DNA of 64,000 nt from an uncultured Bacillales bacterium (GCA_905206805.1 CAJLIR010000003.1:16063-80062); one strand, 5' to 3'. Shown: positions 8,139 through 47,771, counted from the first letter of the stretch. Notes: generated by a model not told the origin, from the sequence alone. A program made the numbers and translations.

Positions 8139-8540
8139 ATGGCAACATTAAACTTGCAAAGCGGTTATATTGCCGACGCAATAATAGAAACAAAGAAAAA
8201 CAGATTTAATGAAAATTTTACAACAATGGGTGAAGTTAATATTGTTAAACAAGTGGTTGAAAGAAGAATTCAAGAAGAAAATTTAAAAGTTCAAATTACT
8301 AATGGTTTTTTTGACAATTATTTTAATATCATAAATGGAGTAATTACTAAAAATGATAAAGAATTTCAAACTTTAAAGATTTTTATATCAGGAAGTAATA
8401 TTCGTGAAACAAATAAAATTCGTGAAACAATTTATGATGAAAATTTAATTTGTTTATGTCTTTGTGAAATTAAAAATAATCAACTTAAACTTAATAATGT
8501 AAAAAATAAATATAAAATACACAAGTTCAACTTGCGATAG
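8139..8540 (+). CDS. hypothetical protein
   Basis: 133-aa ORF with RBS GGAATGGAG. No recognisable motifs. Confidence 0.4.
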   Translation: MATLNLQSGYIADAIIETKKNRFNENFTTMGEVNIVKQVVERRIQEENLKVQITNGFFDNYFNIINGVITKNDKEFQTLKIFISGSNIRETNKIRETIYDENLICLCLCEIKNNQLKLNNVKNKYKIHKFNLR

Positions 8541-8859
8541 CTTATGCTATGGTTTATTACGTGGAGAACATGTAAATGATTGTAGTAAATGGACTCATAA
8601 TTTAGAAAAAATAATAAAACAATTGAAATATAAGATTGTTGTAGAAAGATTTTTTTATAAGTATAACAATAAAACAGGAAGTTTGTGCTTCCTTGTTTTA
8701 CTTTCAAATAAGTGTTAAAATTATTACTAGAAAATATTTAATTTTACTTTGTTATATTTATTAATTTGTAATTCAGACTCACTTATTTGTGTATCTATAA
8801 AATTTTATTAGTATATTAAATCTTAGAATACAAATTAATATTTATGTAAGGAGGAATTT

Positions 8860-9126
8860 ATGTTTGAATTAGTATCAAAATTTAAACCAAATGGTGATCA
8901 ACCAGAAGCAATAGATGCACTAGTTAATGGAATAAATGAGGGAAAAAAACATCAGGTTTTACTAGGTGCCACTGGAACAGGAAAAACATTTACAATCGCA
9001 AATGTGATTGCTAATGTTAATAAACCAACACTAGTTTTGGCTCATAATAAAACTCTTGCCGGTCAATTATACGGTGAATTAAAAGAATTATTTCCAAATA
9101 ACCATGTTGAATACTTTGTCTCATAG
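8860..9126 (+). pseudogene. truncated uvrB 5' copy encoding only the first 88 aa of UvrB
   Basis: The 88-aa translation carries GDQPEAI and the Walker A motif GATGTGKTF and aligns at about 80% identity to the N-terminus of the intact UvrB at 45801. It has its own RBS AAGGAGG and stops right after NHVEYFVS. It lies just outside the left repeat of the ICE. Confidence 0.8.
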
Positions 9127-9229
9127 TATAGTAACCACTCGAAAACCCTTTTATTTCAAGACTTTTAGTTTTATTTAGTCCCTCGAAAATACCAAAAAAA
9201 GACTAAATAAAACTAAATAATAAAATGTA

Positions 9230-9254
9230 AATTTGTGGCTGAAATTCGTATCCA
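9230..9254 (+). repeat. left copy of the 25-bp direct repeat (candidate attL core) AATTTGTGGCTGAAATTCGTATCCA
   Basis: Identical 25-mer to 45670..45694. Next to it is a 16-bp inverted repeat TTAGTTTTATTTAGTC / GACTAAATAAAACTAA (9166..9216) holding TTATTTAGTC motifs that also occur twice beside the right copy. Confidence 0.6.
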
Positions 9255-9362
9255 TTCGTGTCCACTATAAATATATATCTAAACTGATTTATTTAATCAG
9301 TTTTTTTTGTGTTTACTTTGCTGCGTAGAGATAGCGTGGCAGATTAGAAAGGAGGAAAGTAA

Positions 9363-10193
9363 ATGAATAATTGCAAGGTAATAGCTGTTACCAATCAAAA
9401 GGGTGGAGTTGGAAAAACAACAACTACATTAAGTTTAGGTGTTGCTTTATCAAAACTTGGTAAAAAAGTTTTATTAGTAGATGCTGATCCACAGGGTGAT
9501 CTGACAACTTACATGGGATGGTATAATCAATATGATATTCCAGTTACAATTTCTGAATTAATGGAATATGAAATAAATGATAAATCAATAAATTCTAAAG
9601 ATGCTATATTACATCATAAAGAAAATATTGATTTAATTCCATCTAACCTAGATTTTTCTACAATGGAAATGAAATTGATAAATGCAATGAGTAGAGAACA
9701 TACTATGAGAAGATGTTTAGCAGACTTAAAAAAGAGTTATGACTATATTATAATTGATTGTATGCCATCACTTGGTATGATTACAGTAAATGCTTTAGCA
9801 AGTGCAGATAGAGTAATAATACCTGTTCAAGCACATTATCTAGCATTAAAAGGGATGGGAAATTTATTATCTACTATTTCAAGTGTAAGAAAACACTTAA
9901 ATCCTGATTTGCAAGTTGGTGGAGTTCTTTTAACTTTAGTAGATAATAGAACTAATTTAGCAAAGGAAATAAAAGAAGAATTAGTTGCAAACTATGGTAA
10001 TTTAGTTAAAATATTTAATACTCAAATACCTATTGCAATAAAAGCGGCAGAATCAGCTTCACAGGGTAAAAGTATATTCAGCTATGATAAAAATAGTAAA
10101 GTTGCAGAAGCATATTCTTCATTTGCTAAAGAGTTAATAAAAGATGAAAGAAATAAAACAAAAGATGCATCTTCCAGAGATGACAGTAGATGA
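9363..10193 (+). CDS. parA: ParA/Soj-family partition ATPase
   Basis: Deviant Walker A KGGVGKTTTT; downstream blocks VLLVDADPQGD and IIIDCMPSLG. RBS GGAGG precedes the start. Confidence 0.85.
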   Translation: MNNCKVIAVTNQKGGVGKTTTTLSLGVALSKLGKKVLLVDADPQGDLTTYMGWYNQYDIPVTISELMEYEINDKSINSKDAILHHKENIDLIPSNLDFSTMEMKLINAMSREHTMRRCLADLKKSYDYIIIDCMPSLGMITVNALASADRVIIPVQAHYLALKGMGNLLSTISSVRKHLNPDLQVGGVLLTLVDNRTNLAKEIKEELVANYGNLVKIFNTQIPIAIKAAESASQGKSIFSYDKNSKVAEAYSSFAKELIKDERNKTKDASSRDDSR

Positions 10194-29237: not shown

Positions 29238-29510
29238 ATGAGAGATAGAAAAGAAGTTGAAATGATAAAAAAAATGTATCCTATCGGAACAAGAATAAAA
29301 TTAAATTATATGGAAGACAATTTTTCTGTTCCAGCAGGAACAACTGGAACAGTTGATTATGTAGATGATGAAGGACAAATAGGTATGATCTGGGACAATG
29401 GAAGAACATTATCGTTAGTTTATGGAGTTGATAGTTTTTCAAAGATTGAATCCAAAAATGTATGTAAAACAGTAGAAGTGATAGAGTTAAAAAAAGATTA
29501 TGAAAGGTAG
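29238..29510 (+). CDS. small protein, DUF4314-like (weak)
   Basis: GTRIKLNYMEDNFSVPAGTTGTVDYVDDEGQIGMIWDNGRTLSL resembles the small domain often found beside ArdC/methylase genes on Firmicutes ICEs. Confidence 0.35.
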   Translation: MRDRKEVEMIKKMYPIGTRIKLNYMEDNFSVPAGTTGTVDYVDDEGQIGMIWDNGRTLSLVYGVDSFSKIESKNVCKTVEVIELKKDYER

Positions 29511-31852
29511 TGAAAAAAGTGAAAACTCTTAAAAATTTATTTAAACAGGATAAAGAAAAATTTATAGTTCCAAAAGGGGTACAAGATGTAATACCAATCA
29601 CTAGAGTATGGGAAGATGGTATTTTTTTATGTGGAAAAAATAAATATTCAAAAAGTTTTATGTTTACTGATATTAATTATACAGTAGCAAGTAAACAAGA
29701 TCAGGAGGCAATGTTTTTAGAATATTCTGAGTTATTAAATTCATTAGATAATGGAGCAACTTCTAAAATTACCATTTCTAATAGAAAAATAAATAAGATA
29801 GATTTTGAAAAACGCGTTTTAATTCCAAAAGAAGAAGATGATCTTAATAGATATAGAGATGAATATAACAATATGTTATTAGAAAAAATAAGTAGTACAA
29901 ATGGCATAGTTCAAGAAAAATATTTAACTATTTCTATAAATAAAAAATCAATAGAAGAAGCAAGAAATTATTTTACAAGAATAAGTGCTGATCTAATAAG
30001 TAAATTTTCTGCTCTTGGTTCTAAATGTATTGAATTAGATACTATAGATAGATTGAAAATAGCTCACGACTTTTATAGAGTTGGTGATGAAAATGCTTTT
30101 TTCTTTAATTTAAAAGACAGTATGCAAAAAGGACATAGTTATACTGATTATATATGTCCTGATACAATGGAATTTAAAGATGATTATTTTAAGATGGGAA
30201 ATAGGTATGGAAGGGTAATATTTTTAAAAGATTATGCTTCTTATATAAAAGACACAATGGTTGCAGAGTTGACAGAAATTGACAGAAATATGATGTTAAG
30301 TTTAGATGTTGTACCAGTTCCAATGGATGAGGCTATAAAGGAAGTTGAAAACAGAAGACTTGGTGTAGAAACAAATATTACTAATTGGCAAAGAAAACAA
30401 AATGCTAATAATAACTTTTCAGCAATTATACCTTATGATATGGAACAACAAAGAGCAGAAAGTAAAGAATTTTTGGATGATCTAACAACTAGAGATCAAA
30501 GGATGTTTTTAACTGTATTAACTTTAGTACATACAGCTGACACAAAAGAACAACTGGATAATGATACAGAATCTCTTTTAACTATAGGAAGAAAAAATCT
30601 ATGTCAATTTTCTATATTAAAATTTCAACAAATGGATGGACTTAACACTGTAATGCCATTTGGTGTTAGAAAAATTGATTCATTAAGAACATTAACTACA
30701 GAATCTCTAGCTGTATTTATGCCATTTAAGGTTCAAGAAATAAATCACGAAAATGGGATCTATTATGGGCAAAATGTTATAAGTAAAAATATGATAATTG
30801 CTGATAGAAAACAATTATTAAATGGTAATAGTTTTATTTTAGGAGTAAGTGGTAGTGGTAAATCATTTACAGGTAAAAATGAAATAGTTTCTATAATTCT
30901 TCGTGATCCAAAAGCTGATGTAATAATAATTGATCCAGAGCGTGAATATTCATCATTAACTAACGCATTAAATGGTGAAGTTATCAAAATTTCAGCAACT
31001 AGCAAAAATCATATAAACGCAATGGATATAAATGCCAATTATGGAGATGGTACTAACCCAGTAATTTTAAAATCAGAATTTATTTTATCTCTATGTGAAC
31101 AACTAATCGGAAGTAAGAATTTAGGACCAAAACAAAAATCTATAATTGATAGATGTACAGCAAATGTTTATAGAAATTATCAACAAAATAATTATCAAGG
31201 GAATCCGCCAACATTACAAGATTTTAGAAAAGAACTATTAAAGCAAGAAGAAAAAGAAGGAAAAGAAATAGCACTTGCAATCGAGTTATTTACAGATGGA
31301 TCACTTAATACATTTGCTAAAGAAACTAATGTTAATACCGACAATAGATTAATATGCTATGATATTTTAGATCTAGGAAAGCAACTGTTACAAATAGGTA
31401 TGTTAGTAGTATTAGATAGTATTTTAAATAGAATAACAATGAATAGAAGTAAGGGAAGAAATACATACATTTTTATAGATGAAATTTATTTGTTATTCCA
31501 ACACGAATATTCAGCTAATTTCTTATTTACTCTATGGAAGCGTGTGCGTAAATATGGAGCTTATGCAACAGGTATAACACAAAATGTAGATGATCTATTA
31601 CAATCTCATACTGCACGAACTATGCTTGCTAATTCAGAATTTATAGTTATGCTTAATCAAGCATCTACAGACAGGCTAGAACTTGCTAAATTATTAAATA
31701 TTTCAGAATTACAAATGAGTTATATTACAAATGTTGGTGTAGGACAAGGATTAATTAAAGTAGGTAGTAATTTAGTACCTTTTATAAATAAATTTCCTAA
31801 AAATACTAAACTTTATAAGTTAATGACAACAAAACCAAATGAAGAAGAATAG
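29510..31852 (+). CDS. VirB4/TrsE/PrgJ-family conjugal transfer ATPase
   Basis: 780 aa. Walker A LGVSGSGKSF, Walker B/DE box YIFIDEIYLL, typical VirB4 length. The start may be the GTG at 29519 rather than 29510. Confidence 0.85.
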   Translation: MKKVKTLKNLFKQDKEKFIVPKGVQDVIPITRVWEDGIFLCGKNKYSKSFMFTDINYTVASKQDQEAMFLEYSELLNSLDNGATSKITISNRKINKIDFEKRVLIPKEEDDLNRYRDEYNNMLLEKISSTNGIVQEKYLTISINKKSIEEARNYFTRISADLISKFSALGSKCIELDTIDRLKIAHDFYRVGDENAFFFNLKDSMQKGHSYTDYICPDTMEFKDDYFKMGNRYGRVIFLKDYASYIKDTMVAELTEIDRNMMLSLDVVPVPMDEAIKEVENRRLGVETNITNWQRKQNANNNFSAIIPYDMEQQRAESKEFLDDLTTRDQRMFLTVLTLVHTADTKEQLDNDTESLLTIGRKNLCQFSILKFQQMDGLNTVMPFGVRKIDSLRTLTTESLAVFMPFKVQEINHENGIYYGQNVISKNMIIADRKQLLNGNSFILGVSGSGKSFTGKNEIVSIILRDPKADVIIIDPEREYSSLTNALNGEVIKISATSKNHINAMDINANYGDGTNPVILKSEFILSLCEQLIGSKNLGPKQKSIIDRCTANVYRNYQQNNYQGNPPTLQDFRKELLKQEEKEGKEIALAIELFTDGSLNTFAKETNVNTDNRLICYDILDLGKQLLQIGMLVVLDSILNRITMNRSKGRNTYIFIDEIYLLFQHEYSANFLFTLWKRVRKYGAYATGITQNVDDLLQSHTARTMLANSEFIVMLNQASTDRLELAKLLNISELQMSYITNVGVGQGLIKVGSNLVPFINKFPKNTKLYKLMTTKPNEEE

Positions 31853-31854
31853 TT

Positions 31855-33453
31855 ATGGCTGATATTAAAATTAAATATAAGAAATCTAAAGGTATTAAAG
31901 TTTTAGATAAGACAGTTATAGGTACACAGAAATTTAAAAATAATTTAGTAGAAACAAAACAAAAAACAAATGATTTAATAAAAGAAAATAACAAGGAAAA
32001 TGAGTTTGGAGAAAATGTTATAATTAATACATCTAATTATATATCAAGAAAATCGGTATCTACTATTTCTAAAATTAATAAAAAATCCTTTTCTAATATT
32101 AAAAATAAAAGTAATATAAAGAAGGACAATAAAAAGATTTTAAAAGAAAATATTAAAGGAATAAAAAAAACTAGGAAAGCTATAAAAAATACCAAAAATA
32201 TTGGTAATGAAGGAAGAAAAACAGTTTTAAGAACTAAAAAAGCTATTGAAATGACAAAAAAGACAATTAAAACTACTATTAAAGGAATAAAAATAGGAAC
32301 AAAAGCTGCTTCAACAAGTATCAAAGCAATAATAGCTGGTACAAAATCTTTAATGGCTATTTTAACTGCTGGTAGTTCGGTTGTAGGTGTTATAATAATT
32401 AGTATAACTTTAGTAGCTTTATTAGTTGGATCAATATTTGGAATATTTTTTAGTGGTTATAAAACAAATTCTAATTCAATTACAATGGATCAGGTTGTTT
32501 CGGAGTGTCATAAAGAATTTTCTGAAAGAATACAAAATATTCAAGATACTAACCCCCACGATGATTATGTATTTGAAGGAGATATGGCTTCTTGGAAAGA
32601 CATATTAATTGTTTATACTGTAGAAGAAACAAACAGTTTAGATCAAAGAGATGTTGTTACAATAGATGAAAATAAGAAAAATAAAATAAAAGAAATATTT
32701 TGGAGTATGAATATTTTATCATCAGAAGTAAAAACAGAAACCGTAATTGAACAAGGTACTAATGCACTTGAAATGCCTAAAGAAGTACAAAAGAAGGTAT
32801 TACATATAACAGTAAAATCAAAGACTTTAGAACAAGTTAAACTACAAAAGAACTTTAACTATTTTCAAAATCAACAAATAAGTGAATTATTAAGTGATGA
32901 ATATAAGTCTTTATGGAATACTGTTATTTATGGTGAGGATTCAGGAGAATATACTAAATGGAGGCAAAAAGGTGCTGTTTGGTCTAACATAAAAATAGGT
33001 AATACTAATAGTACAATAAGTGATATAGGATGTTTAGTAACTTCAGTAGCTATTTTAATTGAAAAATCTGGTGTAGAAACACCGATAGATCCATTTAATC
33101 CTGGCACTTTTGTAGAAGCTTTAAATAAAAATGGTGGTTTTAGTGAAAATGGTAATCTTCAGTATGCAGCAATAAATAAAGTAGTTCCTAAATTTAGTTA
33201 TGTTGGTAATGTAAATTTAAGAGGATTAACAAAACAAGAAAAAATAGGTATGATTAAATTATATCTTGAGCAAGGATATTATTTAACAGCTGAAGTAAAA
33301 GGAGCAACAGAAGGTAATCAACATTGGGTTGCAATAATGGAAGTAAATGAAAATAATATTAAAATGGTAGATCCAGCTTCAAATTATACTGATCTTTGGA
33401 ACGCGTATGAACATATTAAAACAACACAATTTAATTATTTTAAGGCAAATTAA
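31855..33453 (+). CDS. T4SS-associated peptidoglycan hydrolase (CHAP/NlpC-P60-like Cys-His domain) with K-rich N-terminus and TM anchor
   Basis: 532 aa. A lysine-rich region precedes a TM (LMAILTAGSSVVGVIIISITLVALLV). The C-terminal domain has Cys in DIGCLVTSVAI and His in NQHWVAIMEV, like PrgK/TcpG-type hydrolases. Confidence 0.55.
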   Translation: MADIKIKYKKSKGIKVLDKTVIGTQKFKNNLVETKQKTNDLIKENNKENEFGENVIINTSNYISRKSVSTISKINKKSFSNIKNKSNIKKDNKKILKENIKGIKKTRKAIKNTKNIGNEGRKTVLRTKKAIEMTKKTIKTTIKGIKIGTKAASTSIKAIIAGTKSLMAILTAGSSVVGVIIISITLVALLVGSIFGIFFSGYKTNSNSITMDQVVSECHKEFSERIQNIQDTNPHDDYVFEGDMASWKDILIVYTVEETNSLDQRDVVTIDENKKNKIKEIFWSMNILSSEVKTETVIEQGTNALEMPKEVQKKVLHITVKSKTLEQVKLQKNFNYFQNQQISELLSDEYKSLWNTVIYGEDSGEYTKWRQKGAVWSNIKIGNTNSTISDIGCLVTSVAILIEKSGVETPIDPFNPGTFVEALNKNGGFSENGNLQYAAINKVVPKFSYVGNVNLRGLTKQEKIGMIKLYLEQGYYLTAEVKGATEGNQHWVAIMEVNENNIKMVDPASNYTDLWNAYEHIKTTQFNYFKAN

Positions 33454-33456
33454 AAG

Positions 33457-33473
33457 TCGTTTCTTAAACGACA
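33457..33473 (+). terminator. short hairpin GTCGTTT-CTT-AAACGAC after the hydrolase gene
   Basis: Perfect 7-bp stem right after the stop. The T-tract is weak. Confidence 0.3.
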
Positions 33474-33633
33474 TTACTTTATAGCACTTATCAGCACAAA
33501 AAATAGAATAAATAGTAAAATATCTTATTAGGTGTGATAATATAAGTTGCATAGATAATTTCTTAGATTGTTATTATAGTGAGTATAAAAAATTATATCA
33601 ACTAGGATATTATACATTATAAGAAATAAAAAA

Positions 33634-33710
33634 TTACAAAATTTGACAAAAATTACAAAATTTGACAAAAATATTGACTTTAATAAAAAAATGTTATATT
33701 CTATATTTAG
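33634..33710 (+). promoter_or_regulatory. tandem 21-bp direct repeat (AAAATTACAAAATTTGACAAA x2) with overlapping TTGACA/TTGACT -35 boxes and a TATATT -10
   Basis: Two exact copies, each with a TTGACA hexamer, then TTGACT-15/17 nt-TATATT, about 80 bp upstream of the cargo lipoprotein/ABC operon. Confidence 0.4.
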
Positions 33711-33786
33711 AAGTTTAATATGTTTGTTGAGCAGTACCCAGAAAATATTTTTGTGTACTGCTTTTTGTATAAGAGGTGTATTTGTT

Positions 33787-34635
33787 ATGCTTAATAAAAG
33801 GATGAAAATTATTTTTATGATTATTGTTTCATTATTATATGTAACAGGCTGCAACAAGAAAGTAGATTTTGATGAAAATTTGAATTCATATCCAAAGTTT
33901 GTTTCAAAATGTGTTACAACTGATAGTGATGATGGATGGTTTTATTATTTTTGTATTCAGTATCCAAAGAAAAATAAAAATACAAAGGAAGTCAAAAATA
34001 ATTATCAAAAAGACAATGCTTTTTCATATGTATTTGACGGATTTAATATAAAATATAAAAAAATTGATGGTTATTATATTCCTATCTATGATGAAAGCGG
34101 AACAGAAGTTGGAAATATTGAGCCAGCTGTACCTTCATTGTCAGTTTCATCACAAATGAGAAATGAAATAAAAAAAATTAATGATTTTTTTATGAAAGAA
34201 GATTTTAATAGAATAATATCTGAGGATGATTTAGATGAACTAGAGTTAGAATTTATAGATAAAAGTTTATTAGTAACAATGTTTAACAATGCCTACAATA
34301 AAGAACCAATTGATTTGGGGGTTTGGGTTAATTTGCCACAAGTAGAAATAGTAAAAAGTGAAAAAATTGATAATTATTATTTTAATATAGGATATTATGT
34401 TGAATATGGAAATCTTCAAAAGGTTAATATTGATTTGTTATATGAAGATGGAAGTTATTTATCAGATTTAGTAAAGAATAAAAAAGCTTCAGAAGATAAA
34501 GTAAATGAGTATAATGAATTTAAAAAAATTGAAGAATATATTATTAAAAATCAAACATTTGACTTGTCAAATTATAAAAAATTAGATTTAAAACATTTTG
34601 AAGAATTAAAAAAATTACTTAAGAAAATTGGCTGA
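33787..34635 (+). CDS. lipoprotein, hypothetical (first gene of cargo operon)
   Basis: Start taken at MLNKRMKIIFMIIVSLLYVTGC, a lipobox LYVTGC. The upstream part of the 33643 ORF overlaps the promoter repeats and is unlikely to be coding. Confidence 0.5.
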   Translation: MLNKRMKIIFMIIVSLLYVTGCNKKVDFDENLNSYPKFVSKCVTTDSDDGWFYYFCIQYPKKNKNTKEVKNNYQKDNAFSYVFDGFNIKYKKIDGYYIPIYDESGTEVGNIEPAVPSLSVSSQMRNEIKKINDFFMKEDFNRIISEDDLDELELEFIDKSLLVTMFNNAYNKEPIDLGVWVNLPQVEIVKSEKIDNYYFNIGYYVEYGNLQKVNIDLLYEDGSYLSDLVKNKKASEDKVNEYNEFKKIEEYIIKNQTFDLSNYKKLDLKHFEELKKLLKKIG

Positions 34636-34649
34636 TGAGTGGTGATTTT

Positions 34650-36572
34650 ATGAAAAATATAATAAATGTTACAAATTTAACAAAAAAGTATAATTTATAT
34701 GATGAATATGTTTTGAAAAATTTTAATTATTCTTTTCATGAAACAGGATTTTATGTTCTATTTGGACCTAGCGGATGTGGAAAGACAACTTTGCTTAATA
34801 TATTGTATGGACTAACTGAATATGAAAATGGGGGTATAGAACTTGGAAATGAAAAGTACATCAATAAAATTCCAACAGATGTATCTGAGTCATATATGGC
34901 TTATTTAACCCAAGAAAACTATTTTGTTGATTATTTAACAGTCAAAGATAACATAGAACTATGCAGTGATAATGAGGAAAAAATAAATAAACTTTTAAAA
35001 AAATTTAAACTTGAAGATAAAATTAATTTGTATCCTAAAAATTTATCTGGTGGTGAAAAACAAAGATTATCATTACTTCAGGCCTTGTTGAAACAAAAAA
35101 AAATAATTTTATTAGATGAGCCAACTGCTTCCTTAGATCCAGCAAATAAAACTTTAATATTCGAACTTTTAATGGAAATGAAAGATGATGTTTTAATAAT
35201 ATGTGCTTCGCATGATTCAAAAATTTTTGAATATTGTGATAATGTTATAGAATTTGATAAAATAGAAAAATATACATTAGATGATAATAAAATTGGAAAA
35301 ATATTGAATCCGTTGACACCCCAAAAACAAAAGCCATTGGTTCATTACATGATGAAACAAAATGATAAAAAAACTGTTAGAAGTAAAATACTGATATTAT
35401 TGATATTTTTATTTAGTTTTATGTTATGCTACTTTTGCTTTGATATTAAAGGAAAACTGGTTACAACAATTCAAAACAAGTATAAAGTTAACTATTTAAC
35501 TGTATATTGTCCAATAAATACAAATAGTTGTGAGAGTCTATTTAAAAATGAGAATATTGTAGAATATAATTATGTTTATTCACTGAATGTTCCTTTGGCA
35601 ACATCAGTGGAAGTAGAAGAGGGATTTGTTGGAAATTTAAACTATGAAACATCACTAGTTACTTTACCGGCTAATAAAAATAATTTTCCTTTAGTAAATA
35701 AAATACTTTTTGGGCACTACATAATGGAAAAAAATCAAATAATGTTAGGTTACGAATTAGCAATGGAGCTTTCAAATGGTGATATAGACAAACTAATAGA
35801 TAGCGATATTGTATTAAAATTACCAGATGGAGAGCAAAAATTTGTTGTGGCGGGAGTATTTAATAATTTTACTGATATAGATGCAAAATATTTTCAATCT
35901 GGTGAGATTGATATTGAAAACATTAATAATAAGTATTTTATATCAGGAGAATATACCAAAAAATATTTGAAAGATGATGTATTGGGATATAATGAAATAT
36001 CAAATTCAAAATTAGTTTATTATGTTTATTTTAATGATTTTAATGAACTTTATAATGTTAATAAGAGGTATAGTCAAAATATAATTAGTGGTGATGATAT
36101 CTATGTAAGCTCCTTTCCAAGCCAGTATTTAGATTTTATGAATCAATTTAGAACTTTTTCACTTTTTATATACCCAATAGTATTTTTATCAATAATAATA
36201 GCTATGATATTCTATTTTCAAACAATGGTTTTAGATATTAATTATAATATTCATATAATAGGTGTATATCAGTTTTATGGTTATTCATTAGCAAAAATTA
36301 AAAAGGGCTTGATATTGAATAATATAATAAACATTAGTAAATGTTTTGCATGTTCATTTTTTATTTCATTTGTACTATCATTTTTACTTAATAAAATAAA
36401 TACATCTTTTAATTTATTTAACTATGAGCTATTTAATGTTAATTTCCCAATTGTTTTGGTAATGTATATTATTACGATATTAATATCGATAATTATGTCG
36501 ATATATTTATGCAAAAGTATTAAAAAGAACGGATGGTATAGAATTGTTAAAAATGGTGGTGATTTAATATGA
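34650..36572 (+). CDS. fused ABC transporter ATP-binding / FtsX-like permease protein (MacB-type)
   Basis: Walker A GPSGCGKTT, signature LSGGEKQRLS, Walker B ILLDEPTASLD. The C-terminal ~400 aa form an extracytoplasmic domain plus 4 TM, as in the FtsX/MacB fold. Confidence 0.8.
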   Translation: MKNIINVTNLTKKYNLYDEYVLKNFNYSFHETGFYVLFGPSGCGKTTLLNILYGLTEYENGGIELGNEKYINKIPTDVSESYMAYLTQENYFVDYLTVKDNIELCSDNEEKINKLLKKFKLEDKINLYPKNLSGGEKQRLSLLQALLKQKKIILLDEPTASLDPANKTLIFELLMEMKDDVLIICASHDSKIFEYCDNVIEFDKIEKYTLDDNKIGKILNPLTPQKQKPLVHYMMKQNDKKTVRSKILILLIFLFSFMLCYFCFDIKGKLVTTIQNKYKVNYLTVYCPINTNSCESLFKNENIVEYNYVYSLNVPLATSVEVEEGFVGNLNYETSLVTLPANKNNFPLVNKILFGHYIMEKNQIMLGYELAMELSNGDIDKLIDSDIVLKLPDGEQKFVVAGVFNNFTDIDAKYFQSGEIDIENINNKYFISGEYTKKYLKDDVLGYNEISNSKLVYYVYFNDFNELYNVNKRYSQNIISGDDIYVSSFPSQYLDFMNQFRTFSLFIYPIVFLSIIIAMIFYFQTMVLDINYNIHIIGVYQFYGYSLAKIKKGLILNNIINISKCFACSFFISFVLSFLLNKINTSFNLFNYELFNVNFPIVLVMYIITILISIIMSIYLCKSIKKNGWYRIVKNGGDLI

Positions 36573-38341
36573 TAGAGATTAAAAATATAAATAAATCATA
36601 TGATCGACCTATTTTAAAAAATATAAATCTTAAGTTTTATGAAAATAATATTTATTTGTTAAAGGGAATTAGTGGTTGTGGCAAAACAAGTTTGCTTAAT
36701 ATAATAGGTGGAATAGATGATGATTATTCTGGACAGTATTTTTCAGATGGTGTTAGTATTACCGATCAAAATAAAAAAAATAGGAACAAATTTTTCACTA
36801 AAATTGGATATGTTTTTCAAGAAAGCTTATTGGTTAGTAATCTAAGTATCTATGAAAATTTAGAACTTATAAAAAATGACAAAGAAAAAATTTATGAGTT
36901 GTCGAAAAAATTTAAAGTAAGTAAATTATTAGATAAAATGCCTAGTGAATTATCGGGTGGAGAACGACAGAGAGTGAGCATTATTAGAGCACTGTTACTA
37001 GATCCTGATATCATAATTGCTGATGAGCCAACTGCTTCTTTAGATAGAAAGAATGCATTGGAATTGTGTGAATTACTTAATCTATTGCACGAAGAAAACA
37101 AGATCATAATAATATCAACTCACGATAATATATTTGATAACATTTCTGATTGCATTATAACAATAGATTATGGTGTTACTTCTATTGTGAAGGATAATGT
37201 AGCAAAAAAAAATTCAGAAAAAAAATATATTACTGGTTATAAAAAAAATAATTTTAAACAAATAGACTTTACTTATTCTTTTAGAAAATTTAAAAAATCT
37301 TTTAATATTGGTTCTATAGTTACAATTACTTCAATAATGCTATTAATATTTATAATTTTAGCTATTAAGATGAATTTTAAGGAAGCATATATTAAATATA
37401 TGAGTAAAAAATACCCTTTTGAAACAGTTGATCTAAATTCTAAAATATATAATAATATGAAAGATAAAATAAATTTTAAAGTATATGATAACTATAATTT
37501 TAATGAAGAAAATATAGATTATTTAACTTTATTGCCTAAAAAAGAATCATTATTAAGTAATAAGATTTATTTGTATGATGGCTATTTTCCAAATGAAGAG
37601 AATCAAGTTTTAATAAATGAAGATTTTTTAAACAAAGTTTTAAAAAAGAAAATACTAACTGGAAATGAATCTATTTTAATAAGAGGTAAAAATTTTAAAA
37701 TAACAGGTGTAATAACAAATAATGAAACATTATTAAATGATATTTATAATACAAATTCTTATTATGATAATACCATAAATCCAAAGGTTTTTATACCATA
37801 TGAATCTATAAAAAAGATTTCAAAAAAAATAACGACAGAAAATATAATGGTTACAATCAAAGGATTATATAATGAACATTTATCTGAAGAATTATCTAAG
37901 TTAGGGTTTGTTAATTGTTGGAGTAATAAAATAGAAAATATAACATATACATTAGATTTATTTATAAATTTGTTTTTTATAGCGTTAGCAATTTTATCAT
38001 TTATATCTTTCATATTTTTAGCAAATCAAATAATTTTATCTTTATATTATAGAAAAAAAGAGTTCGGATATTTACAATTATTTGGTGTTAACAAGAGAAG
38101 AATAAAAAAAATCGTTTTATATGAATATTTTTATAAATATATTTTTTCATTGATTTTAGCAATAATTATAGATTTTATAATATCTTTGATATTTTCTTAT
38201 ATTTTAAATGTTAATGTTTTTTTATCGATTAAACATTTTATATTAATAGTATTGATAATATTGATATATTGTTATTTACTTATTTTTATACCATTTAGAA
38301 TTTATATATCAAAAAGCATAAAATCGTTGATATATGATTAA
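36569..38341 (+). CDS. second fused ABC transporter ATP-binding / FtsX-like permease protein (MacB-type)
   Basis: Walker A GISGCGKTS, signature LSGGERQRVS, Walker B IIADEPTASLD, with a C-terminal FtsX-like permease. Its start overlaps the upstream stop (ATGA). Confidence 0.8.
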   Translation: MIEIKNINKSYDRPILKNINLKFYENNIYLLKGISGCGKTSLLNIIGGIDDDYSGQYFSDGVSITDQNKKNRNKFFTKIGYVFQESLLVSNLSIYENLELIKNDKEKIYELSKKFKVSKLLDKMPSELSGGERQRVSIIRALLLDPDIIIADEPTASLDRKNALELCELLNLLHEENKIIIISTHDNIFDNISDCIITIDYGVTSIVKDNVAKKNSEKKYITGYKKNNFKQIDFTYSFRKFKKSFNIGSIVTITSIMLLIFIILAIKMNFKEAYIKYMSKKYPFETVDLNSKIYNNMKDKINFKVYDNYNFNEENIDYLTLLPKKESLLSNKIYLYDGYFPNEENQVLINEDFLNKVLKKKILTGNESILIRGKNFKITGVITNNETLLNDIYNTNSYYDNTINPKVFIPYESIKKISKKITTENIMVTIKGLYNEHLSEELSKLGFVNCWSNKIENITYTLDLFINLFFIALAILSFISFIFLANQIILSLYYRKKEFGYLQLFGVNKRRIKKIVLYEYFYKYIFSLILAIIIDFIISLIFSYILNVNVFLSIKHFILIVLIILIYCYLLIFIPFRIYISKSIKSLIYD

Positions 38342-38406
38342 TTTGATTAAAAATCGCTAGTACAGGGTTTTTAATATATATATAGCAGTGAGGAGGTGAG
38401 TGGAAA

Positions 38407-38901
38407 ATGAAAAAGATATTAATGTCAATGTTCTTAACATTTGCGGCAGTTATTGCAACTACTACGACAGCTCATGCTGGAAGTTGTACAGCTGTTTTAG
38501 ATGGTCCTAGTTTAAAAGCTGGCACTGATCATAACGGGACTGTATATTCTTTAGCAAGTAGTTATGCTACTGCAACTGGAAATAGGGCTAAAACATATTT
38601 CTACAATTTATCTACATTATCTAATACATTTGCTAGCGATCCTAATAGATTATTGGGTGCTAATTTAATGGAAGATGATTGGCTAAATGCAGATGATTTA
38701 GTAAAAACTTACTATGGTACTTTTACAGGAATTACGTTAACTAATGTATATTTAAATAGTACAAAAATCAGTGGAAATATTGAAGATGAAGGCGATAATG
38801 TTAGCGAATTATATTTAAGATCTGTTGTCTCAAAAAGTAACCTTGATGGAGGTACTTTAACAACAAGAAGCTTCTTTGATTATCAACTTTGTCAAGAATA
38901 A
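38407..38901 (+). CDS. small secreted protein (164 aa) with Sec signal peptide and terminal Cys pair; function unknown
   Basis: MKKILMSMFLTFAAVIATTTTAHA|GSC... is an AXA cleavage site. The mature protein of about 140 aa is Gly/Thr/Asn-rich, with Cys right after the cleavage site and Cys 3 residues from the C-terminus. Strong RBS GGAGGTGAG. Confidence 0.55.
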   Translation: MKKILMSMFLTFAAVIATTTTAHAGSCTAVLDGPSLKAGTDHNGTVYSLASSYATATGNRAKTYFYNLSTLSNTFASDPNRLLGANLMEDDWLNADDLVKTYYGTFTGITLTNVYLNSTKISGNIEDEGDNVSELYLRSVVSKSNLDGGTLTTRSFFDYQLCQE

Positions 38902-38945
38902 TGCTACTAATTATGATATTGTGGAGCTTTCAATAGCTCCTTTTT

Positions 38946-39416
38946 TTGGGAGTGTTAACATTGAAAAAAATTTTTAGAGATATAATAATAATTACTTTTC
39001 CAACTATTATTATTATGATAATTACAAATTTCTTTTATTCATTTTCTCTTATCAAAGGTACTTCAATGCAGCCAAATTTTATTGAAGGTGATTTTGTAGT
39101 ATATCAAAAATTTAATAAAATTATTTCTAGGTTTGACGTTGTTATATTAAAAAAAGGTAATACTATTTATATAAAGAGAGTAATTGGATTACCTACGGAA
39201 GAAATTATGTATGAAAATAATAACCTATACATTAATGGTGAGAATATAAGTGAAGAATTTTTAGATAAATTTGCATATACAGAAAATTTTAATTATGTAG
39301 TATCAAAAGGAAAATATTTTGTTCTTGGGGATAATAGAGAAAACTCTTTAGATAGTAGAAGCTTTGGATTAGTAGATTATGATGAAATTTTAGGCATTAT
39401 TAAAATCAAAATTTAG
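38946..39416 (+). CDS. signal peptidase I (P-type, LepB/SipS family)
   Basis: Box B KGTSMQPNF (catalytic Ser), box D YIKRVIGLP (catalytic Lys), box E VLGDNRENSLDSRSFG. The start may be the TTG at 38961. Confidence 0.75.
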   Translation: MGVLTLKKIFRDIIIITFPTIIIMIITNFFYSFSLIKGTSMQPNFIEGDFVVYQKFNKIISRFDVVILKKGNTIYIKRVIGLPTEEIMYENNNLYINGENISEEFLDKFAYTENFNYVVSKGKYFVLGDNRENSLDSRSFGLVDYDEILGIIKIKI

Positions 39417-39582: not shown

Positions 39583-39864
39583 TTACTTTTTTTGATCAAT
39601 TCTTGTGTAATTAGTAATATGACTTTCATCATATTTTAATAAATCAGAACTTGTTATATTTAATTTACTATCAATATTTTTATTAATACCCTCAGCAAGT
39701 TTGTCTAACATTTCTAATGATGTTTTCCTTCTACCTTTTTCTAGTTGATTAATATATACTAAACTACTACCCACTTTAGATGCAAATTCCTCTTGGGATA
39801 AGTTATAAATCTTTCTAATATATCTCAAATTTATAGAAAGAATTTCTTTACTACTTTTCATCAA
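39583..39864 (-). CDS. XRE-family HTH transcriptional regulator (only ICE gene on the minus strand)
   Basis: LSQEEFASKVGSSLVYINQLEKGRR is an HTH_XRE. RBS GGAGGTAAG precedes the start on the minus strand. Its divergent position relative to 40011 suggests a switch-like arrangement. Confidence 0.65.
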   Translation of the reverse strand: MMKSSKEILSINLRYIRKIYNLSQEEFASKVGSSLVYINQLEKGRRKTSLEMLDKLAEGINKNIDSKLNITSSDLLKYDESHITNYTRIDQKK

Positions 39865-40010
39865 CTTACCTCCATTTCTACAAAATATATTTTATACAAG
39901 TGTTAAATAAATGTCTTTTAACATTTGTTAAAGGAAAATACTTGATTTTTGATAAAAAACAATATAATATATCAATAAGCAGTACAAGTATTCACTAGGA
40001 GGAGGCATTA

Positions 40011-42174: not shown

Positions 42175-42549
42175 ATGAAAAAAATTAAACGAGGAGAAAT
42201 ATTTAATGCCAATTTAGATCCTGTTCTAGGACACGAACAGGGTGGAAATAGACCAGTTTTAGTTTTACAAAATAATCATAGTTTAAAAAGATGCCCAACT
42301 GTTTTGGTAGCACCTTTAACAAAAATGATCAATAAGAAATACGATTTACCCACACACGTATATATTGAACCTTCTAATTATTTAAAATATGATTCGGTGG
42401 TCTTAGCTGAGCATATTAGAGAAATAGATAGATTGAGAATAACATATTACTTAACAACATTAACAAAAAAACAACAAAAATTGGTAGATAAGGCAATTAT
42501 AAACGCATTTGGATTAAGTATTAAGGAGATAAATTTATATGAGAAATAA
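42175..42549 (+). CDS. MazF/PemK-family endoribonuclease toxin
   Basis: RGEIFNANLDPVLGHEQGGNRPVLVLQNN...VLVAPLT is the canonical PemK/MazF N-terminal signature. RBS GGAGGA. Confidence 0.75.
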   Translation: MKKIKRGEIFNANLDPVLGHEQGGNRPVLVLQNNHSLKRCPTVLVAPLTKMINKKYDLPTHVYIEPSNYLKYDSVVLAEHIREIDRLRITYYLTTLTKKQQKLVDKAIINAFGLSIKEINLYEK

Positions 42550-43055: not shown

Positions 43056-44255
43056 ATGAAAAAAACAAAACTAACTTGGGGAAAAAGTGGGATAGTTTTC
43101 TTTGAAGGTTCATCGTGGGGATTTAGATATAAAGAAAGGTTAGAAGATGGATCAACTAAATATGGAAAAGTTAAGGGATATGCAACGGAACAAGATGCTG
43201 TAAAAGATTATTATATATATGAAGAAAAATTTAAAGAAAAAAGTAGAGAATATGAAGTAAGCATTAACAAAGATATAATGTTTGTTGATTACCTGATTTA
43301 TTGGTTTGAAAATATATATTCTGAACGAATAGAAACAACAACAAAAATGGTTAGTTCATATATCATATATAATTTAATCGTGCCTAGTATTGAATATAAT
43401 TTAAAAATAAATTTAGTAACAACTGATTATTTAGACGATATAATAAAAAGAGCTTCTAATTTAACAGAAAGTGGCGGATATTCTGCAAGGATGATTATAA
43501 TTATGGCAATGAAAGATGCATTGATTGGTGGATATATTTCACACAATCCATCTTTAGATACTAAACAATACAGAAGAAAAAAACCTAAAATTAGAGTATA
43601 TACTAAAAGGCAATTAAAGAGATTTTTAACAGCATCCCAATCATCAAATTGGTATCTTGAAATATTATTAGGATTATTTTGTGGACTTCGTAAGGGTGAA
43701 ATAATGGGACTTAAATTTTCTGATTTTGATATGGAAAATAGAACTGTGAAAGTGGAAAGACAAATAGCAAAAGAATATGAATTAGAAAAAAATACTAGTA
43801 AAATTACAAAATGTTCATTAGTAGAAAAAAATCCAAAGACCCCTGAAAGTATAAGAACACTTAAAGTTCCCGATATAATTATAGAAGAATTAGAGAAAAG
43901 AAATGAAAAAGTAAATTTAGATAAAGCAATTTATAAAAATAAATATATAGATAATAATTATATATCTTGCACAGAAATAGGGGTAGTGCATTCTCAATCA
44001 TCTTTAAATGCTAGAATAATAAAAATATGCAGACAACTAAGTTTACCAGATTTGACCGTACACGGTTTAAGACATATGTGTGCAACAATTCTATTAGAAA
44101 GTGGAGCTTCACTTGCTAAAATACAAGCATTTCTAGGGCATAGATCAATCCATACAACATTTGAATATTATTGTGAGGTAATGGATGAAAAAGATAAAAT
44201 ATTGGCATTTATGAATAATATTTTTGCTATTGAAGATGGTGATACGAAATGTTAA
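43056..44255 (+). CDS. int: tyrosine-type site-specific integrase (Int-Tn-like, with N-terminal arm-binding domain)
   Basis: Catalytic-domain motifs LRKGEIMGLKFSDFD (Arg box), HGLRHMCAT (HxxR), LGHRSIHTTFEYY (His and Tyr nucleophile). Confidence 0.85.
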   Translation: MKKTKLTWGKSGIVFFEGSSWGFRYKERLEDGSTKYGKVKGYATEQDAVKDYYIYEEKFKEKSREYEVSINKDIMFVDYLIYWFENIYSERIETTTKMVSSYIIYNLIVPSIEYNLKINLVTTDYLDDIIKRASNLTESGGYSARMIIIMAMKDALIGGYISHNPSLDTKQYRRKKPKIRVYTKRQLKRFLTASQSSNWYLEILLGLFCGLRKGEIMGLKFSDFDMENRTVKVERQIAKEYELEKNTSKITKCSLVEKNPKTPESIRTLKVPDIIIEELEKRNEKVNLDKAIYKNKYIDNNYISCTEIGVVHSQSSLNARIIKICRQLSLPDLTVHGLRHMCATILLESGASLAKIQAFLGHRSIHTTFEYYCEVMDEKDKILAFMNNIFAIEDGDTKC

Positions 44256-45547
44256 CAAAAGAACAAATGCGGAAAGTTTATAATGATTATACAGTATATT
44301 CTGTATTAAAATTAAAAGATAAATACGGATTTAAGGTTAAGCTGACATTTATAGATGGACAGCAAGAAATAAGGCAAATAGGTGGTTTTAAAACAAAAAA
44401 AGAGGCAAACCTAGAAAGAGATAAAGTTGTAGCACAATTAGTCAACCACTCCTATGTTGTTTATCCAAAAATAAAAAGTAGTGAGTATTTTGAATATTGG
44501 TTAGAAATAGTGATGAAACCTAATTTAACATATAATAGTTATATGTCATATAGAAATGTAGTTAATAATTATGCTATCCCATATTTCAAAAATTACTACA
44601 TTAATCAAATAAATATGGGACATATTCAAAAATTTTATAATGAAGTTTCAATTAAATATAAATCGATAGCAAAGTTATCAAAAGTAGTATTAAATTCAGC
44701 ATTTGAATATGCTAAAAAGAATAATTTAATTAATACTAATCCAACATTAAATGTTAGACTTCCGAAAGGAATTGATACATCATATAATAAGGTTCAAGTA
44801 ATTGATATAGAAAAGACATTTAATATTGAACAGATAAAATTAATAATTGAGAAAAGTAAAGAAACACCAATATATTTACATATATTATTTGCGTTGTTGA
44901 TGGGATTAAGAAAGCAAGAAATTAATGGAGTAAAATATTCAGATATTGATTATGTTAATAGAAAATTATATTTAAAAAGGCAACTAGGAATTGATCCAAA
45001 TAAATCAAAAGAAGATTGTAAGAAAAAAACATACACGAAACAGGAAATAAAATTAAAAACCTTTTCAAGTGAAAGGGTACTTGATATACCTGATATGGTT
45101 TTTGAGGCAATACAAGAACAAAGAAAAATTTATGAAACAAATAGAAGAAGGAGAATAAATGATAAAACAACTCCCTTTACTGATTTAGGATTTATTTGTT
45201 GTTCTACCTATGGGCATCCAAGAAGTAAAGGGTTTCATAAAAGATATTATGATAAACTATTAGAAGAAAATAATTTACCAAAAATTAGATTTCACGATTT
45301 AAGACATACATATACCACATTATTATTAATGAATAATCACGATTTAAAGGCTGTATCAGAACTACTAGGACACTCATCAACAATAATTACATCAAGTACA
45401 TATTTTGACAAGAATAAAATAATTGTTGATTGTAATAAAGAATTAAATTCATTTATTGAATTAGTTAAACCAGATGAAAACTTGTATTCATCAGATACAA
45501 TAATAGACATAGATACAAATGATATTTTGGCAAAATATTTATATTAA
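44249..45547 (+). CDS. second tyrosine-type site-specific integrase, diverged paralog
   Basis: LRKQEINGVKYSDID; HDLRHTYTT; LGHSSTIITSSTY. It overlaps the stop of int1 by 7 nt, suggesting co-transcription. Confidence 0.85.
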   Translation: MLTKEQMRKVYNDYTVYSVLKLKDKYGFKVKLTFIDGQQEIRQIGGFKTKKEANLERDKVVAQLVNHSYVVYPKIKSSEYFEYWLEIVMKPNLTYNSYMSYRNVVNNYAIPYFKNYYINQINMGHIQKFYNEVSIKYKSIAKLSKVVLNSAFEYAKKNNLINTNPTLNVRLPKGIDTSYNKVQVIDIEKTFNIEQIKLIIEKSKETPIYLHILFALLMGLRKQEINGVKYSDIDYVNRKLYLKRQLGIDPNKSKEDCKKKTYTKQEIKLKTFSSERVLDIPDMVFEAIQEQRKIYETNRRRRINDKTTPFTDLGFICCSTYGHPRSKGFHKRYYDKLLEENNLPKIRFHDLRHTYTTLLLMNNHDLKAVSELLGHSSTIITSSTYFDKNKIIVDCNKELNSFIELVKPDENLYSSDTIIDIDTNDILAKYLY

Positions 45548-45800: not shown

Positions 45801-47771
45801 ATGGAACAAAAAGATACAAAAATGTTCAAAATTCACTCAAAATATACACCTAGTGGAGATCAACCAGAGGCAATAAATTCATTAGTTAAAGGAATTGAAA
45901 ATGGTGAGAAATACCAAGTTTTACTTGGTGCAACGGGAACTGGAAAAACTTTTACGATTGCAAACGTAATTGAAAAAGTGAATAAACCAACTCTAGTTTT
46001 AGCTCATAATAAGACACTTGCAGGGCAATTATACGCGGAACTCAAGGAGATCTTCCCCGACAATCACGTATGTTACTTTGTATCATATTATGATTATTAT
46101 CAACCAGAAGCATACGTTGCTAAAACTGATACATATATTGAAAAAGATGCATCAATTAACGACGAGATAGATGAGTTACGTCATTCCGCAACAGCGTCCT
46201 TATTAAAATATAAGGATGTAATAGTAGTATCTTCTGTATCTTGTATTTATGGAATAGGTGAAATAGAAGAATATAAAAATAAAATGTTATCACTTGCGGT
46301 AGATGATGAGATAGATAGAGATAAAGTATTAGAAAAATTAATTGATATGTTATATGAAAGAAATAATATAGATTTAAAAAGAGGAACTTTTAGAGTAAGG
46401 GGAGATGTTTTAGAAATAATTCCAGTTAATGAACATTCTAAAGGAATAAGAGTTGAATTTTTTGGAGATACGGTTGAAAAAATCTCAGAATTTGATATTT
46501 TAACTGGCGTAATAACAAATAATAAAAAGGCAATATCAATATTTCCCGCAAGTCATTTCGTAACAAGTGATGAAAAAATAAAGAAAGCAATTAAAAATAT
46601 TCAAATAGAGTTAGAAGAACAACTACAAAAATTCAAAGATGAAAATAAATTACTTGAATATCAAAGATTGCAAGAAAGAACAAATTATGATATAGAAATG
46701 CTTAGTGAAACTGGTACTTGTCGTGGTGTTGAAAATTATTCTAGACATTTAGCGTTAAAAGAACCAGGTGCAACCCCAACTACACTTATTGATTTCTTTG
46801 GTGATGATTATCTTATGATAATAGATGAATCACACGTAACAGTTCCCCAAGTACGTGGTATGTATAATGGTGATCAAGCAAGAAAAAAGGTACTTGTTGA
46901 TTATGGTTTCAGACTTCCAAGTGCGATGGATAATAGACCATTAAAATTTGAAGAATTTGAAAAAAAGATAAATCAAATTATTTATGTATCAGCAACACCT
47001 GGTGATTACGAATTAGAAAAATGTAATGGTAAATTTGTAGAACAAATAATAAGACCAACTGGTTTATTAGATCCTACTATTGAAGTTAGAAAAACAGAAG
47101 GTCAAATAGATAACTTAGTAGAAGAAATATATAAGAAAATAGAAAAAAATGAAAGAACATTAATTACGACTTTAACAATTCGTATGGCAGAAGAATTAAC
47201 TACATATTTAAAAAATATTGATATAAAAGTGGCTTACCTACATAGTGAAATTAAGACATTAGAAAGAATGAAAATAATACGCGATTTACGTATGGGCAAG
47301 TATGATGTATTAGTTGGTATAAATTTACTTAGGGAAGGAATTGATATACCAGAAGTTAGCTTAATTGCGATAATGGATGCTGATAAACAAGGGTTCTTAA
47401 GAAGTGAAAGAAGTTTAATTCAAACTATTGGAAGAGCGGCAAGAAATTCAAACGGACATGTTATTATGTATGCCGATACCATAAGTGATTCTATGAGTCT
47501 TGCAATATCAGAAACAGAAAGAAGAAGAAAAATACAAGAAGAATATAATAGGAAAAATAATATTATTCCTAAAACTATCATAAAAGAAATACGTGATGTA
47601 ATTAGTATTAATGAAGAAAAAACACAACCTGATAAAATAAAAATGACAAGCTCTGATAAAAACAAAATGATAGAAAAATTAGAAATAGAAATGAGAGAAG
47701 CAGCCAAAAATCTTGATTTTGAAAGAGCAATGGAATTAAGAGATATATTATTTGAATTAAAAAGCGAATAA
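45801..47771 (+). CDS. uvrB: excinuclease ABC subunit B
   Basis: 656 aa, full length, with Walker [10 protein letters not shown], helicase motifs and the UvrB C-terminal UVR domain. Strong RBS AAGGAGG. Confidence 0.9.

Follow-up and report, generated by a model that had tools for sequence, protein, structure and literature searches.

We analyzed a 64,000-nucleotide stretch of DNA from an uncultured Bacillales bacterium (GCA_905206805.1, CAJLIR010000003.1:16063-80062; hereafter the window, meaning this whole stretch), in which a compact block of five genes lies inside an integrative and conjugative element (ICE). The block encodes a lipoprotein (L), two fused ATP-binding cassette (ABC) proteins (A1 and A2), a small secreted protein (S) and a type I signal peptidase (SPase):

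33787-34635, + strand: L, a 282-amino acid (aa) lipoprotein with the lipobox LYVTG↓C
34635-36572, + strand: A1, a 645-aa fusion of an ABC ATPase and a MacB/FtsX-type permease, whose start overlaps the L stop codon
36569-38341, + strand: A2, a 590-aa fusion of an ABC ATPase and a MacB/FtsX-type permease, in a 4-nt ATGA overlap with A1
38407-38901, + strand: S, a 164-aa Sec-secreted protein with a signal peptide cleaved at AHA↓GS
38923-38940, + strand: terminator-like hairpin, GGAGCT-TTCAAT-AGCTCC and then a T7 run, between the S and SPase genes
38961-39416, + strand: P-type SPase of 151 aa, with an N-terminal transmembrane (TM) anchor, Ser35 (SMQP), Lys72 (KRVIG) and box E

Four of these components, S, L, A1 and A2, form a coherent conserved module that recurs in unrelated contexts and co-diverges. 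Contigs were fetched for S homologs at 57 to 25% identity, and every locus was scanned with hidden Markov models (HMMs) built from the S and L alignments, giving a context sample of about 12 lineages, several of them on short contigs. L directly adjoins S in 10 of the 12 independent S lineages, down to 25% identity (the window and loci L010, L012, L013, L014, L015, L020, L021, L025 and L026; three-digit numbers denote loci throughout). The A1-A2 pair is present in six loci, namely with S and L in the window, L010, L012, L014 and L021, and without S in L028. The gene orders around S are as follows:

window: L-A1-A2-S-SPase
L010 and L012: L-A1-A2-S
L014 and L021: S-L-A1-A2
L013, L020, L025 and L026: S-L
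L015: an ABC gene, a gene for a 150-aa protein, SPase, S, L
L001 (exception): S alone, beside an IS110 element
L018 (exception): a degenerate remnant

Wherever the pair is present, the A1 and A2 orthologs retain their own sizes (A1 orthologs: L010, L012, L014, L021 and L028), and identity to the window proteins drops in parallel across the four components (S 53/57/37/33%, L 44/43/28/32%, A1 44/51/30/36%, A2 45/47/34/35%). Mobile DNA accompanies the module elsewhere too, with type IV secretion system (T4SS) genes at L010 and L013, a serine recombinase at L012 and IS110 at L001. Some candidate relatives were rejected: a 281-aa protein near S in L001 as an L homolog (19% identity, no HMM match), a second 165-aa gene in L010 as an S duplicate (E = 13), and a 114-aa protein of L015 as a member of the lactococcin 972 family, an assignment to which the HMMs gave no support. 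A second uncurated Sec-secreted family of ∼250 aa, termed T (24-43% mutual identity), lies beside the module in five loci (L010:2666-3391, L015:72-824, L021:1048-1836, L025:1785-2555 and, on the minus strand, L028:3462-4238) and has no member in the window; it gave no Pfam or NCBIfam match at E ≤ 0.001 or near a curated cut-off. PLSDB plasmids gave no match to the region, S, L or T in megablast and tblastn searches.

A1 and A2 are predicted to have the layout of MacB-type, or type VII, ABC proteins, with an N-terminal nucleotide-binding domain (NBD), four TM segments and a large domain between TM1 and TM2. A hydropathy scan placed the NBD, TM1, an extracytoplasmic domain of ∼200-235 aa (∼235 aa in A1) and TM2-4 in this order. 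In both proteins Walker A, LSGGE, Walker B with its Glu, and the H-loop are intact. The N-terminal Pfam domain ABC_tran scored 101 bits in A1 and 105 bits in A2; the Pfam FtsX domain (cut-off 25.5) scored above threshold in A2 (40.3 bits) and below it in A1 (20.2 bits), and A2 gave a weak MacB_PCD match (19.4 bits versus a cut-off of 27). The original prediction of two MacB-type fused ABC proteins with complete motifs is thus borne out, the FtsX match of A1 being below cut-off. The two proteins are paralogs, with NBDs 38% identical. Because the start of A1 overlaps the stop of L and A1 and A2 share an ATGA, the genes appear to be translationally coupled, and this suggests that A1 and A2 form a heterodimer. 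The best NCBIfam match of both NBDs was TIGR03608, at 149 bits (the lower of the A1/A2 pair) and 170 bits (A2) against a cut-off of 254.85, with FtsE among the other top NBD matches, and the permease part of A2 alone matched only TIGR01654 (17 bits versus a cut-off of 189.35). PADLOC returned only generic ATPase-containing models for A1 and A2.

It is highly improbable, in our estimate, that A1/A2 are an ordinary antimicrobial-peptide or drug resistance pump with S, L and SPase as mere neighbors. A Bacillus cereus plasmid (L024; NZ_CP128105.1, 14727-20535) carries a fused ABC pair of 648 and 598 aa, with ∼27% identity to A2, without S or L and directly behind a response regulator and a histidine kinase, a layout typical of peptide-resistance modules, and one source labels A1 a 'hemin transport' protein. 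However, S, L, A1 and A2 keep their synteny and diverge in parallel over at least five independent loci, which rules out a chance neighborhood. The circumstance named beforehand as fatal to the original prediction, that the ABC pair would match a characterized pump unrelated to the adjacent genes, was looked at and does not hold.

Mature S comprises 140 aa (∼15 kDa) with an isoelectric point (pI) of 4.5 (family median 4.7). Word-indexed searches gave only 11-17 relatives, whereas an exhaustive HMMER search yielded 125 cluster representatives at 50% identity, nearly all of 150-180 aa; the aligned family members (n = 86) start with canonical AxA signal peptides. A scan of species-representative genomes found only two close relatives, in an uncultured Erysipelothrix sp. 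and a Bacilli bacterium. S does not belong to a family with housekeeping distribution. S, including the 86 aligned members, matched no Pfam, NCBIfam, PADLOC or PHROGs family, and a PDB profile search gave signal-peptide noise only, in keeping with the earlier remark that S resembles no recognized family. The structure prediction proposed at that point was run: with the family alignment, AlphaFold2 (AF2) modeled S with a mean predicted local distance difference test (pLDDT) score of 95.7 as an all-β, jelly-roll-like sandwich, complete as a monomer with no missing strand. Foldseek comparison of the model with the PDB gave nothing below E = 1e-3. The weak PDB matches were jelly-rolls (birnavirus VP2, satellite-virus coats, TNF-family proteins and nucleoplasmin), and BFVD gave weak matches to C1q/TNF-like domains and to minor tail proteins of phages (TM-scores 0.4-0.55). 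Asp91, Tyr102 and Glu134 are invariant in the family, and further acidic positions are conserved in 'LMEDD...DDxVK' and 'GNIExxGDxxSELY', which hints at a metal or catalytic site.

S has one Cys at mature position 3 and another at the third residue from the end (Cys27 and Cys162). The AHA↓GS cleavage site and the Cys at both ends had been noted beforehand, and both are present, but the pair is no family trait: both terminal cysteines occur in 13 of the 86 members, neither in 73 and a single one in none. The pair is thus restricted to some subclades, and most S-family members have no Cys at all. This strict co-occurrence argues for a Cys27-Cys162 disulfide; in the model the short N-terminal strands and the C-terminal strand share one sandwich. 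That S is itself a lipoprotein was rejected, as the -3 residue is Ala, the site is of the form AxA↓G and the N-terminal Cys never occurs without the C-terminal one.

The upstream lipoprotein of the original prediction was confirmed. The signal peptide of L ends in a lipobox that fits the [LVI][ASTVI][GAS]C pattern of signal peptidase II substrates, from which lipidation is predicted, and Cys22 is nearly invariant among close homologs. Distant homologs lack the lipobox Cys and have an N-terminal TM helix as an anchor instead, so that the conserved property of L would be its tethering to the outer face of the membrane. Members of the uncurated L family are ∼281 aa long; L, including 18 family members, had no match in Pfam, NCBIfam, PADLOC, PHROGs or a PDB profile search. 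The AF2 model of L is confident (pLDDT 87). Foldseek found nothing below E = 1e-3 in the PDB for it, the weak partial likenesses being to two structural-genomics proteins of uncharacterized function. No HlyD-family adaptor match was obtained in Pfam or NCBIfam for L or the neighboring open reading frames (ORFs), and a metagenome scan with L returned three short loci.

The SPase is of the P-type (TIGR02227 133.1 bits, cut-off 47; Peptidase_S26 122 bits), with a TM segment at residues 8-26 and box E (GDNRENSLDSR) at residue 123; it matched no PADLOC family. Its ORF is open from TTG 38946, within the T-run of the hairpin behind S, but a more plausible start is TTG 38961, which GGGAG (38948-38952) precedes. 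A terminator scan found three sites against 0.7 expected, and the hairpin at 38923-38940 is not strong in fold. The enzyme had been described as a private P-type SPase. The type and the intact Ser and Lys boxes hold, but the SPase is no constant part of the module: beside S it is known from only two loci, the window ICE and L015, where a 151-aa SPase I with 46% identity to that of the window lies directly upstream of an S homolog (28% identical to the S of the window). Suggestive as this recurrence is, no SPase accompanies the module at the other loci, and SPase I genes are frequent on Gram-positive plasmids (187 PLSDB records, best identity 42-44% to the window SPase). For these two reasons the SPase is probably an optional accessory that raises the capacity to process a secreted protein made in large amounts, and it does not define the module.

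A small secreted β-sandwich protein beside its own type I signal peptidase recalls TasA/SipW (BsaA/SipW), and an analogy with matrix-protein loci that have a dedicated SPase had been drawn on this basis. It does not hold up. The SPase scores 133 bits with TIGR02227 and only 19.2 bits with the SipW/ER-type model TIGR02228, under the cut-off of 51.85, and it is missing from most module loci; S gave no match to a SipW-type signal, none of the 86 S-family members matched TasA/camelysin (Peptidase_M73), and TasA was not among the top 50 Foldseek matches in the PDB.

Other parallels are found among bacteriocin loci. S is a Sec-dependent β-sandwich secreted protein encoded next to FtsX-type ABC proteins on a mobile element, as is lactococcin 972 (Lcn972), and two of the three NCBIfam models of the lactococcin 972 system (TIGR01653, TIGR01654 and TIGR03608) are the top match of the NBDs (TIGR03608) and the only match of the A2 permease (TIGR01654), both far below cut-off. 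However, S shows no sequence match to Lcn972 and is double its size, A1 and A2 are fused, duplicated and have four TM segments in MacB style, and L and the SPase are extra. Membership was thus not supported, with S in no family and the TIGR03608 and TIGR01654 scores given above. A second parallel is the established lantibiotic self-immunity pair of a LanI lipoprotein and a LanEF(G) ABC transporter (PMC8538875), in which a surface lipoprotein and an ABC transporter are likewise encoded with a secreted antimicrobial, with a two-layer logic of protection (PMC8538875). Here too the parts differ: LanFEG is built of ABC-2-type split subunits and A1/A2 are of MacB type, no similarity between L and NisI or SpaI was detectable, and S would be a folded 15-kDa Sec-exported protein and not a modified peptide, there being no modification enzymes in the module. 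Among MacB-type systems, YknXYZ protects B. subtilis against its own SDP toxin, AS-48EFGH is listed with question marks as a possible exporter of the mature bacteriocin AS-48, and MacAB-TolC exports the Sec-exported, disulfide-bonded enterotoxin STII (PMC5985334). A1 and A2 share with these systems and with Aat the NBD, the four TM segments and the large extracytoplasmic domain, and the substrate of MacAB-TolC and Aat is, as predicted for S, a Sec-exported small protein or toxin with disulfides (PMC5985334, PMC7943197). Unlike them, the module has no membrane-fusion adaptor, TolC-like duct or acyltransferase, two paralogous fused subunits replace the homodimer, and L comes from an unrelated, uncurated family.

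We tentatively prefer, at rather less than even confidence, to regard S as a Sec-exported effector or bacteriocin, with L and the A1/A2 pair as self-protection. In such a scheme, S would be exported by Sec and cleaved after AHA by type I signal peptidase, with the ICE's own SPase I possibly adding processing capacity for it, and would fold outside the cell, a disulfide stapling its two ends in this subfamily. It could then diffuse to competitors and act on their envelope as a bacteriocin-like effector. L, exposed on the outside of the producer membrane, would intercept S, and the A1/A2 pump would clear S from the membrane surface by ATP-driven mechanotransmission, giving a two-tier self-protection like that of LanI with LanFEG, or of YknXYZ against SDP. 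Several observations favor this proposal, among them the linkage of S with L, and at five loci with A1 and A2, and the parallel divergence of the four proteins. The presence of L-A1-A2 without S in L028 favors protection over dedicated export, and the location on mobile elements (ICE, T4SS genes, recombinase, IS110) fits bacteriocin loci. S has a strong ribosome-binding site (RBS) of its own, GAGGAGGTGA, which together with the terminator-like hairpin behind the gene fits an abundantly expressed structural gene. That the bacteriocin-associated models TIGR03608 and TIGR01654 are the nearest to the NBDs and permease, albeit below cut-off, also counts for an effector. The original prediction had likewise pointed to an effector or bacteriocin locus with immunity pumps; this is still the best fit, as something that we infer.

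A number of findings weigh against an effector with self-protection. S is like no known toxin or bacteriocin (no Pfam, NCBIfam or PDB match, and best Foldseek TM-scores of only 0.4-0.55). Mature S is acidic, unlike typical cationic membrane-active bacteriocins, and is the most conserved of the four components, which is not the pattern of a fast-evolving toxin. S occurs without L nearby in L001, and in one metagenomic ICE copy A2 is split while S is intact (see below). L028 carries T and is therefore not a clean 'immunity-only' island, L013 and L015 have PG-binding hydrolase-like genes that also fit envelope remodeling, and the SPase is present in only two loci.

Several of the same properties bear on another reading, in which S (and elsewhere T) is a surface or colonization protein that docks on L, and the A1/A2 heterodimer works on S outside the membrane, releasing it from the membrane, passing it through the wall or assembling it, as in MacAB-TolC with STII, Aat with dispersin, or LolCDE with lipoproteins. 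MacB-type transporters handle substrates that are already beyond the membrane (PMC5985334), and Aat pairs a Sec-cleaved small protein with a MacB/Lol-like ABC transporter (PMC7943197). The tight S-L adjacency and the acidic, well folded and strongly conserved nature of S would suit a docking surface protein, as would its weak fold likeness to the C1q/TNF-like receptor-binding heads of phage tail proteins and the position of L010 beside sortase and SpaA pilin genes. However, in a monoderm host there is no outer membrane for S to pass, and no membrane-fusion adaptor (HlyD/MacA/YknX-type), acyltransferase or TolC-like gene was found with Pfam and NCBIfam in the module neighborhood. In addition, L-A1-A2 is kept without S in L028 and S without L-A1-A2 in L001, and the complete AF2 monomer fold of S offers no missing strand for polymerization. 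We therefore regard release or assembly of S as a serious alternative, though a somewhat unlikely one.

The effector-and-protection scheme and the handling of a Sec substrate by a MacB-type transporter are both of known kinds; what is new here are the protein families, the fused, putatively heterodimeric ABC pair and the fixed coupling of S and L. Literature searches turned up no earlier account of the module or of either protein family, S or L. It is unlikely, though worth stating, that S, L and A1/A2 constitute either a previously undescribed system of monoderm gut bacteria, in which a MacB-type heterodimer and a dedicated anchored partner handle a folded, Sec-exported jelly-roll protein beyond the membrane, or a new class of protein bacteriocin with an immunity protein that faces the envelope, S and L founding new families spread by ICEs. 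If S were an antagonistic effector, its family would be a new one among protein bacteriocins and its immunity apparatus an unusual one, and the ICE would carry them as a competitive or addiction trait. If the ABC pair acts on S, MacB-type mechanotransmission would extend to protein handling in bacteria without an outer membrane. Either way, S and L, which are confidently modeled but unannotated, obtain a testable genomic context.

The window is AT-rich (∼25% GC across its 64 kb), and the module had been called cargo. This is supported by its position as a block inside the ICE, behind the VirB4 and putative hydrolase genes and ahead of the PemK gene, the integrases and uvrB. The downstream gene order was read by position from identical ICE copies. 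The flanking features are:

29510-31852: VirB4-like ATPase of the CD1110 family, upstream of the module (1029 bits, NCBIfam)
31855-33453: 532-aa protein, putative ICE wall hydrolase, between VirB4 and the module
33456-33472: bidirectional terminator-like hairpin, GTCGTTTCTTAAACGAC, directly 3' of the 532-aa gene, dividing the T4SS genes from the cargo module
42175-42549: PemK-family toxin gene, downstream of the module
43056-44255 and 44249-45547: two tandem tyrosine integrases, downstream of the PemK gene
45801-47771: uvrB, directly past the integrases

The PemK gene and integrases before uvrB mark the right ICE end and an insertion beside uvrB, beyond which gene content varies among ICE copies (holin/Lgt in some, radical-SAM/SPASM in others). 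The loop of the hairpin at 33456-33472 is altered in ICE copy L008. The identical 164-aa S is indexed in 244 blocks of a public assembly collection, and as the same ICE was found at all six of the places inspected, the module is actively spreading among uncultured low-GC Firmicutes. The metagenomic ICE copy L007 has an intact S but carries A2 in two pieces (8164-9935), an ATPase of 231 aa and an FtsX part of 323 aa, as the result of either pseudogene formation or misassembly.

The position directly after the putative wall hydrolase raises the alternative that A1/A2 transmit ATP-driven motion to L and S as extracellular partners, which in turn regulate a peptidoglycan (PG) hydrolase, as in FtsEX. 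The ABC superfamily of A1 and A2 also includes the FtsEX-type proteins, and one of the top NBD matches is FtsE. The genes next after L in L015 (5980-8343) and L013 (9348-9971) encode proteins that have an N-terminal PG_binding_1-like domain in common, and the 787-aa protein of L015 has an additional Rv2525c-like glycoside-hydrolase domain; the displayed sequences of both begin without an obvious hydrophobic signal peptide. However, most module loci have no hydrolase, several are not on conjugative elements, and the 532-aa protein of the window has no Pfam domain match. To our knowledge, the FtsX partners characterized so far are coiled-coil proteins that resemble neither S nor L, which also counts against such a role. 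We consider FtsEX-type control improbable; in the window, such control could help the ICE's own wall hydrolase during conjugation.

Finally, we examined the leader of the module and the nearby regulatory features:

33629-33672, + strand: exact tandem repeat of the 19-bp unit AAAAATTACAAAATTTGAC in 2.3 copies (Tandem Repeats Finder score 88, 100% match)
33729-33763, + strand: stable hairpin and then UUUGUAU in the 5' leader, ∼20 nt upstream of the L RBS AAGAGGTG
39583-39864, − strand: XRE/HTH_3 regulator of 93 aa (HTH_3 51.5 bits), adjacent and convergent to the module
39883-39932: 25-bp imperfect tandem repeat holding a palindrome, between the XRE gene and a divergent gene at 40011

The repeat, each full unit of which carries TTGACA, is located where the module promoter is presumed to be. 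It had been described as a 21-bp repeat, but the unit is 19 bp. ICE copy L008 has a single unit only, so that the duplication is a polymorphism and not a conserved operator pair; it looks like a recent event. The AT-rich region has no excess of promoter-like hexamers (79 found versus 66.8 ± 7.4 expected), and for this reason no promoter assignment was made. The leader hairpin is kept in all aligned ICE copies, and the 101-nt region around it (33700-33800) has a minimum free energy of -22.1 kcal/mol (z = -3.06 versus shuffles); it may be a transcription attenuator or a terminator-like element.

The 93-aa XRE protein is probably the ICE's own regulator. The suggestion that the tandem repeat serves as its operator was dropped, as the duplication is polymorphic, no XRE-style palindrome was seen near the module promoter, and the sole palindrome lies by the XRE gene itself. 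This unique TGTTAAA-N9-TTTAACA element (39901-39923), in the divergent intergenic region of the XRE gene, is likely the XRE operator of the ICE regulatory module. Larger HTH_3 regulators (termed R, 240-370 aa) lie upstream of the module elsewhere (L010:1466-2569, L013:6400-7149, L014:4829-5620 and L028:4480-5208); the window has no member of this family, and the 93-aa XRE protein is not homologous to it. The S-less T/R/A1/A2/L cluster of L028 ends by a GC-rich stretch of tRNA-like look (L028:10100-10538), a possible integration hotspot.

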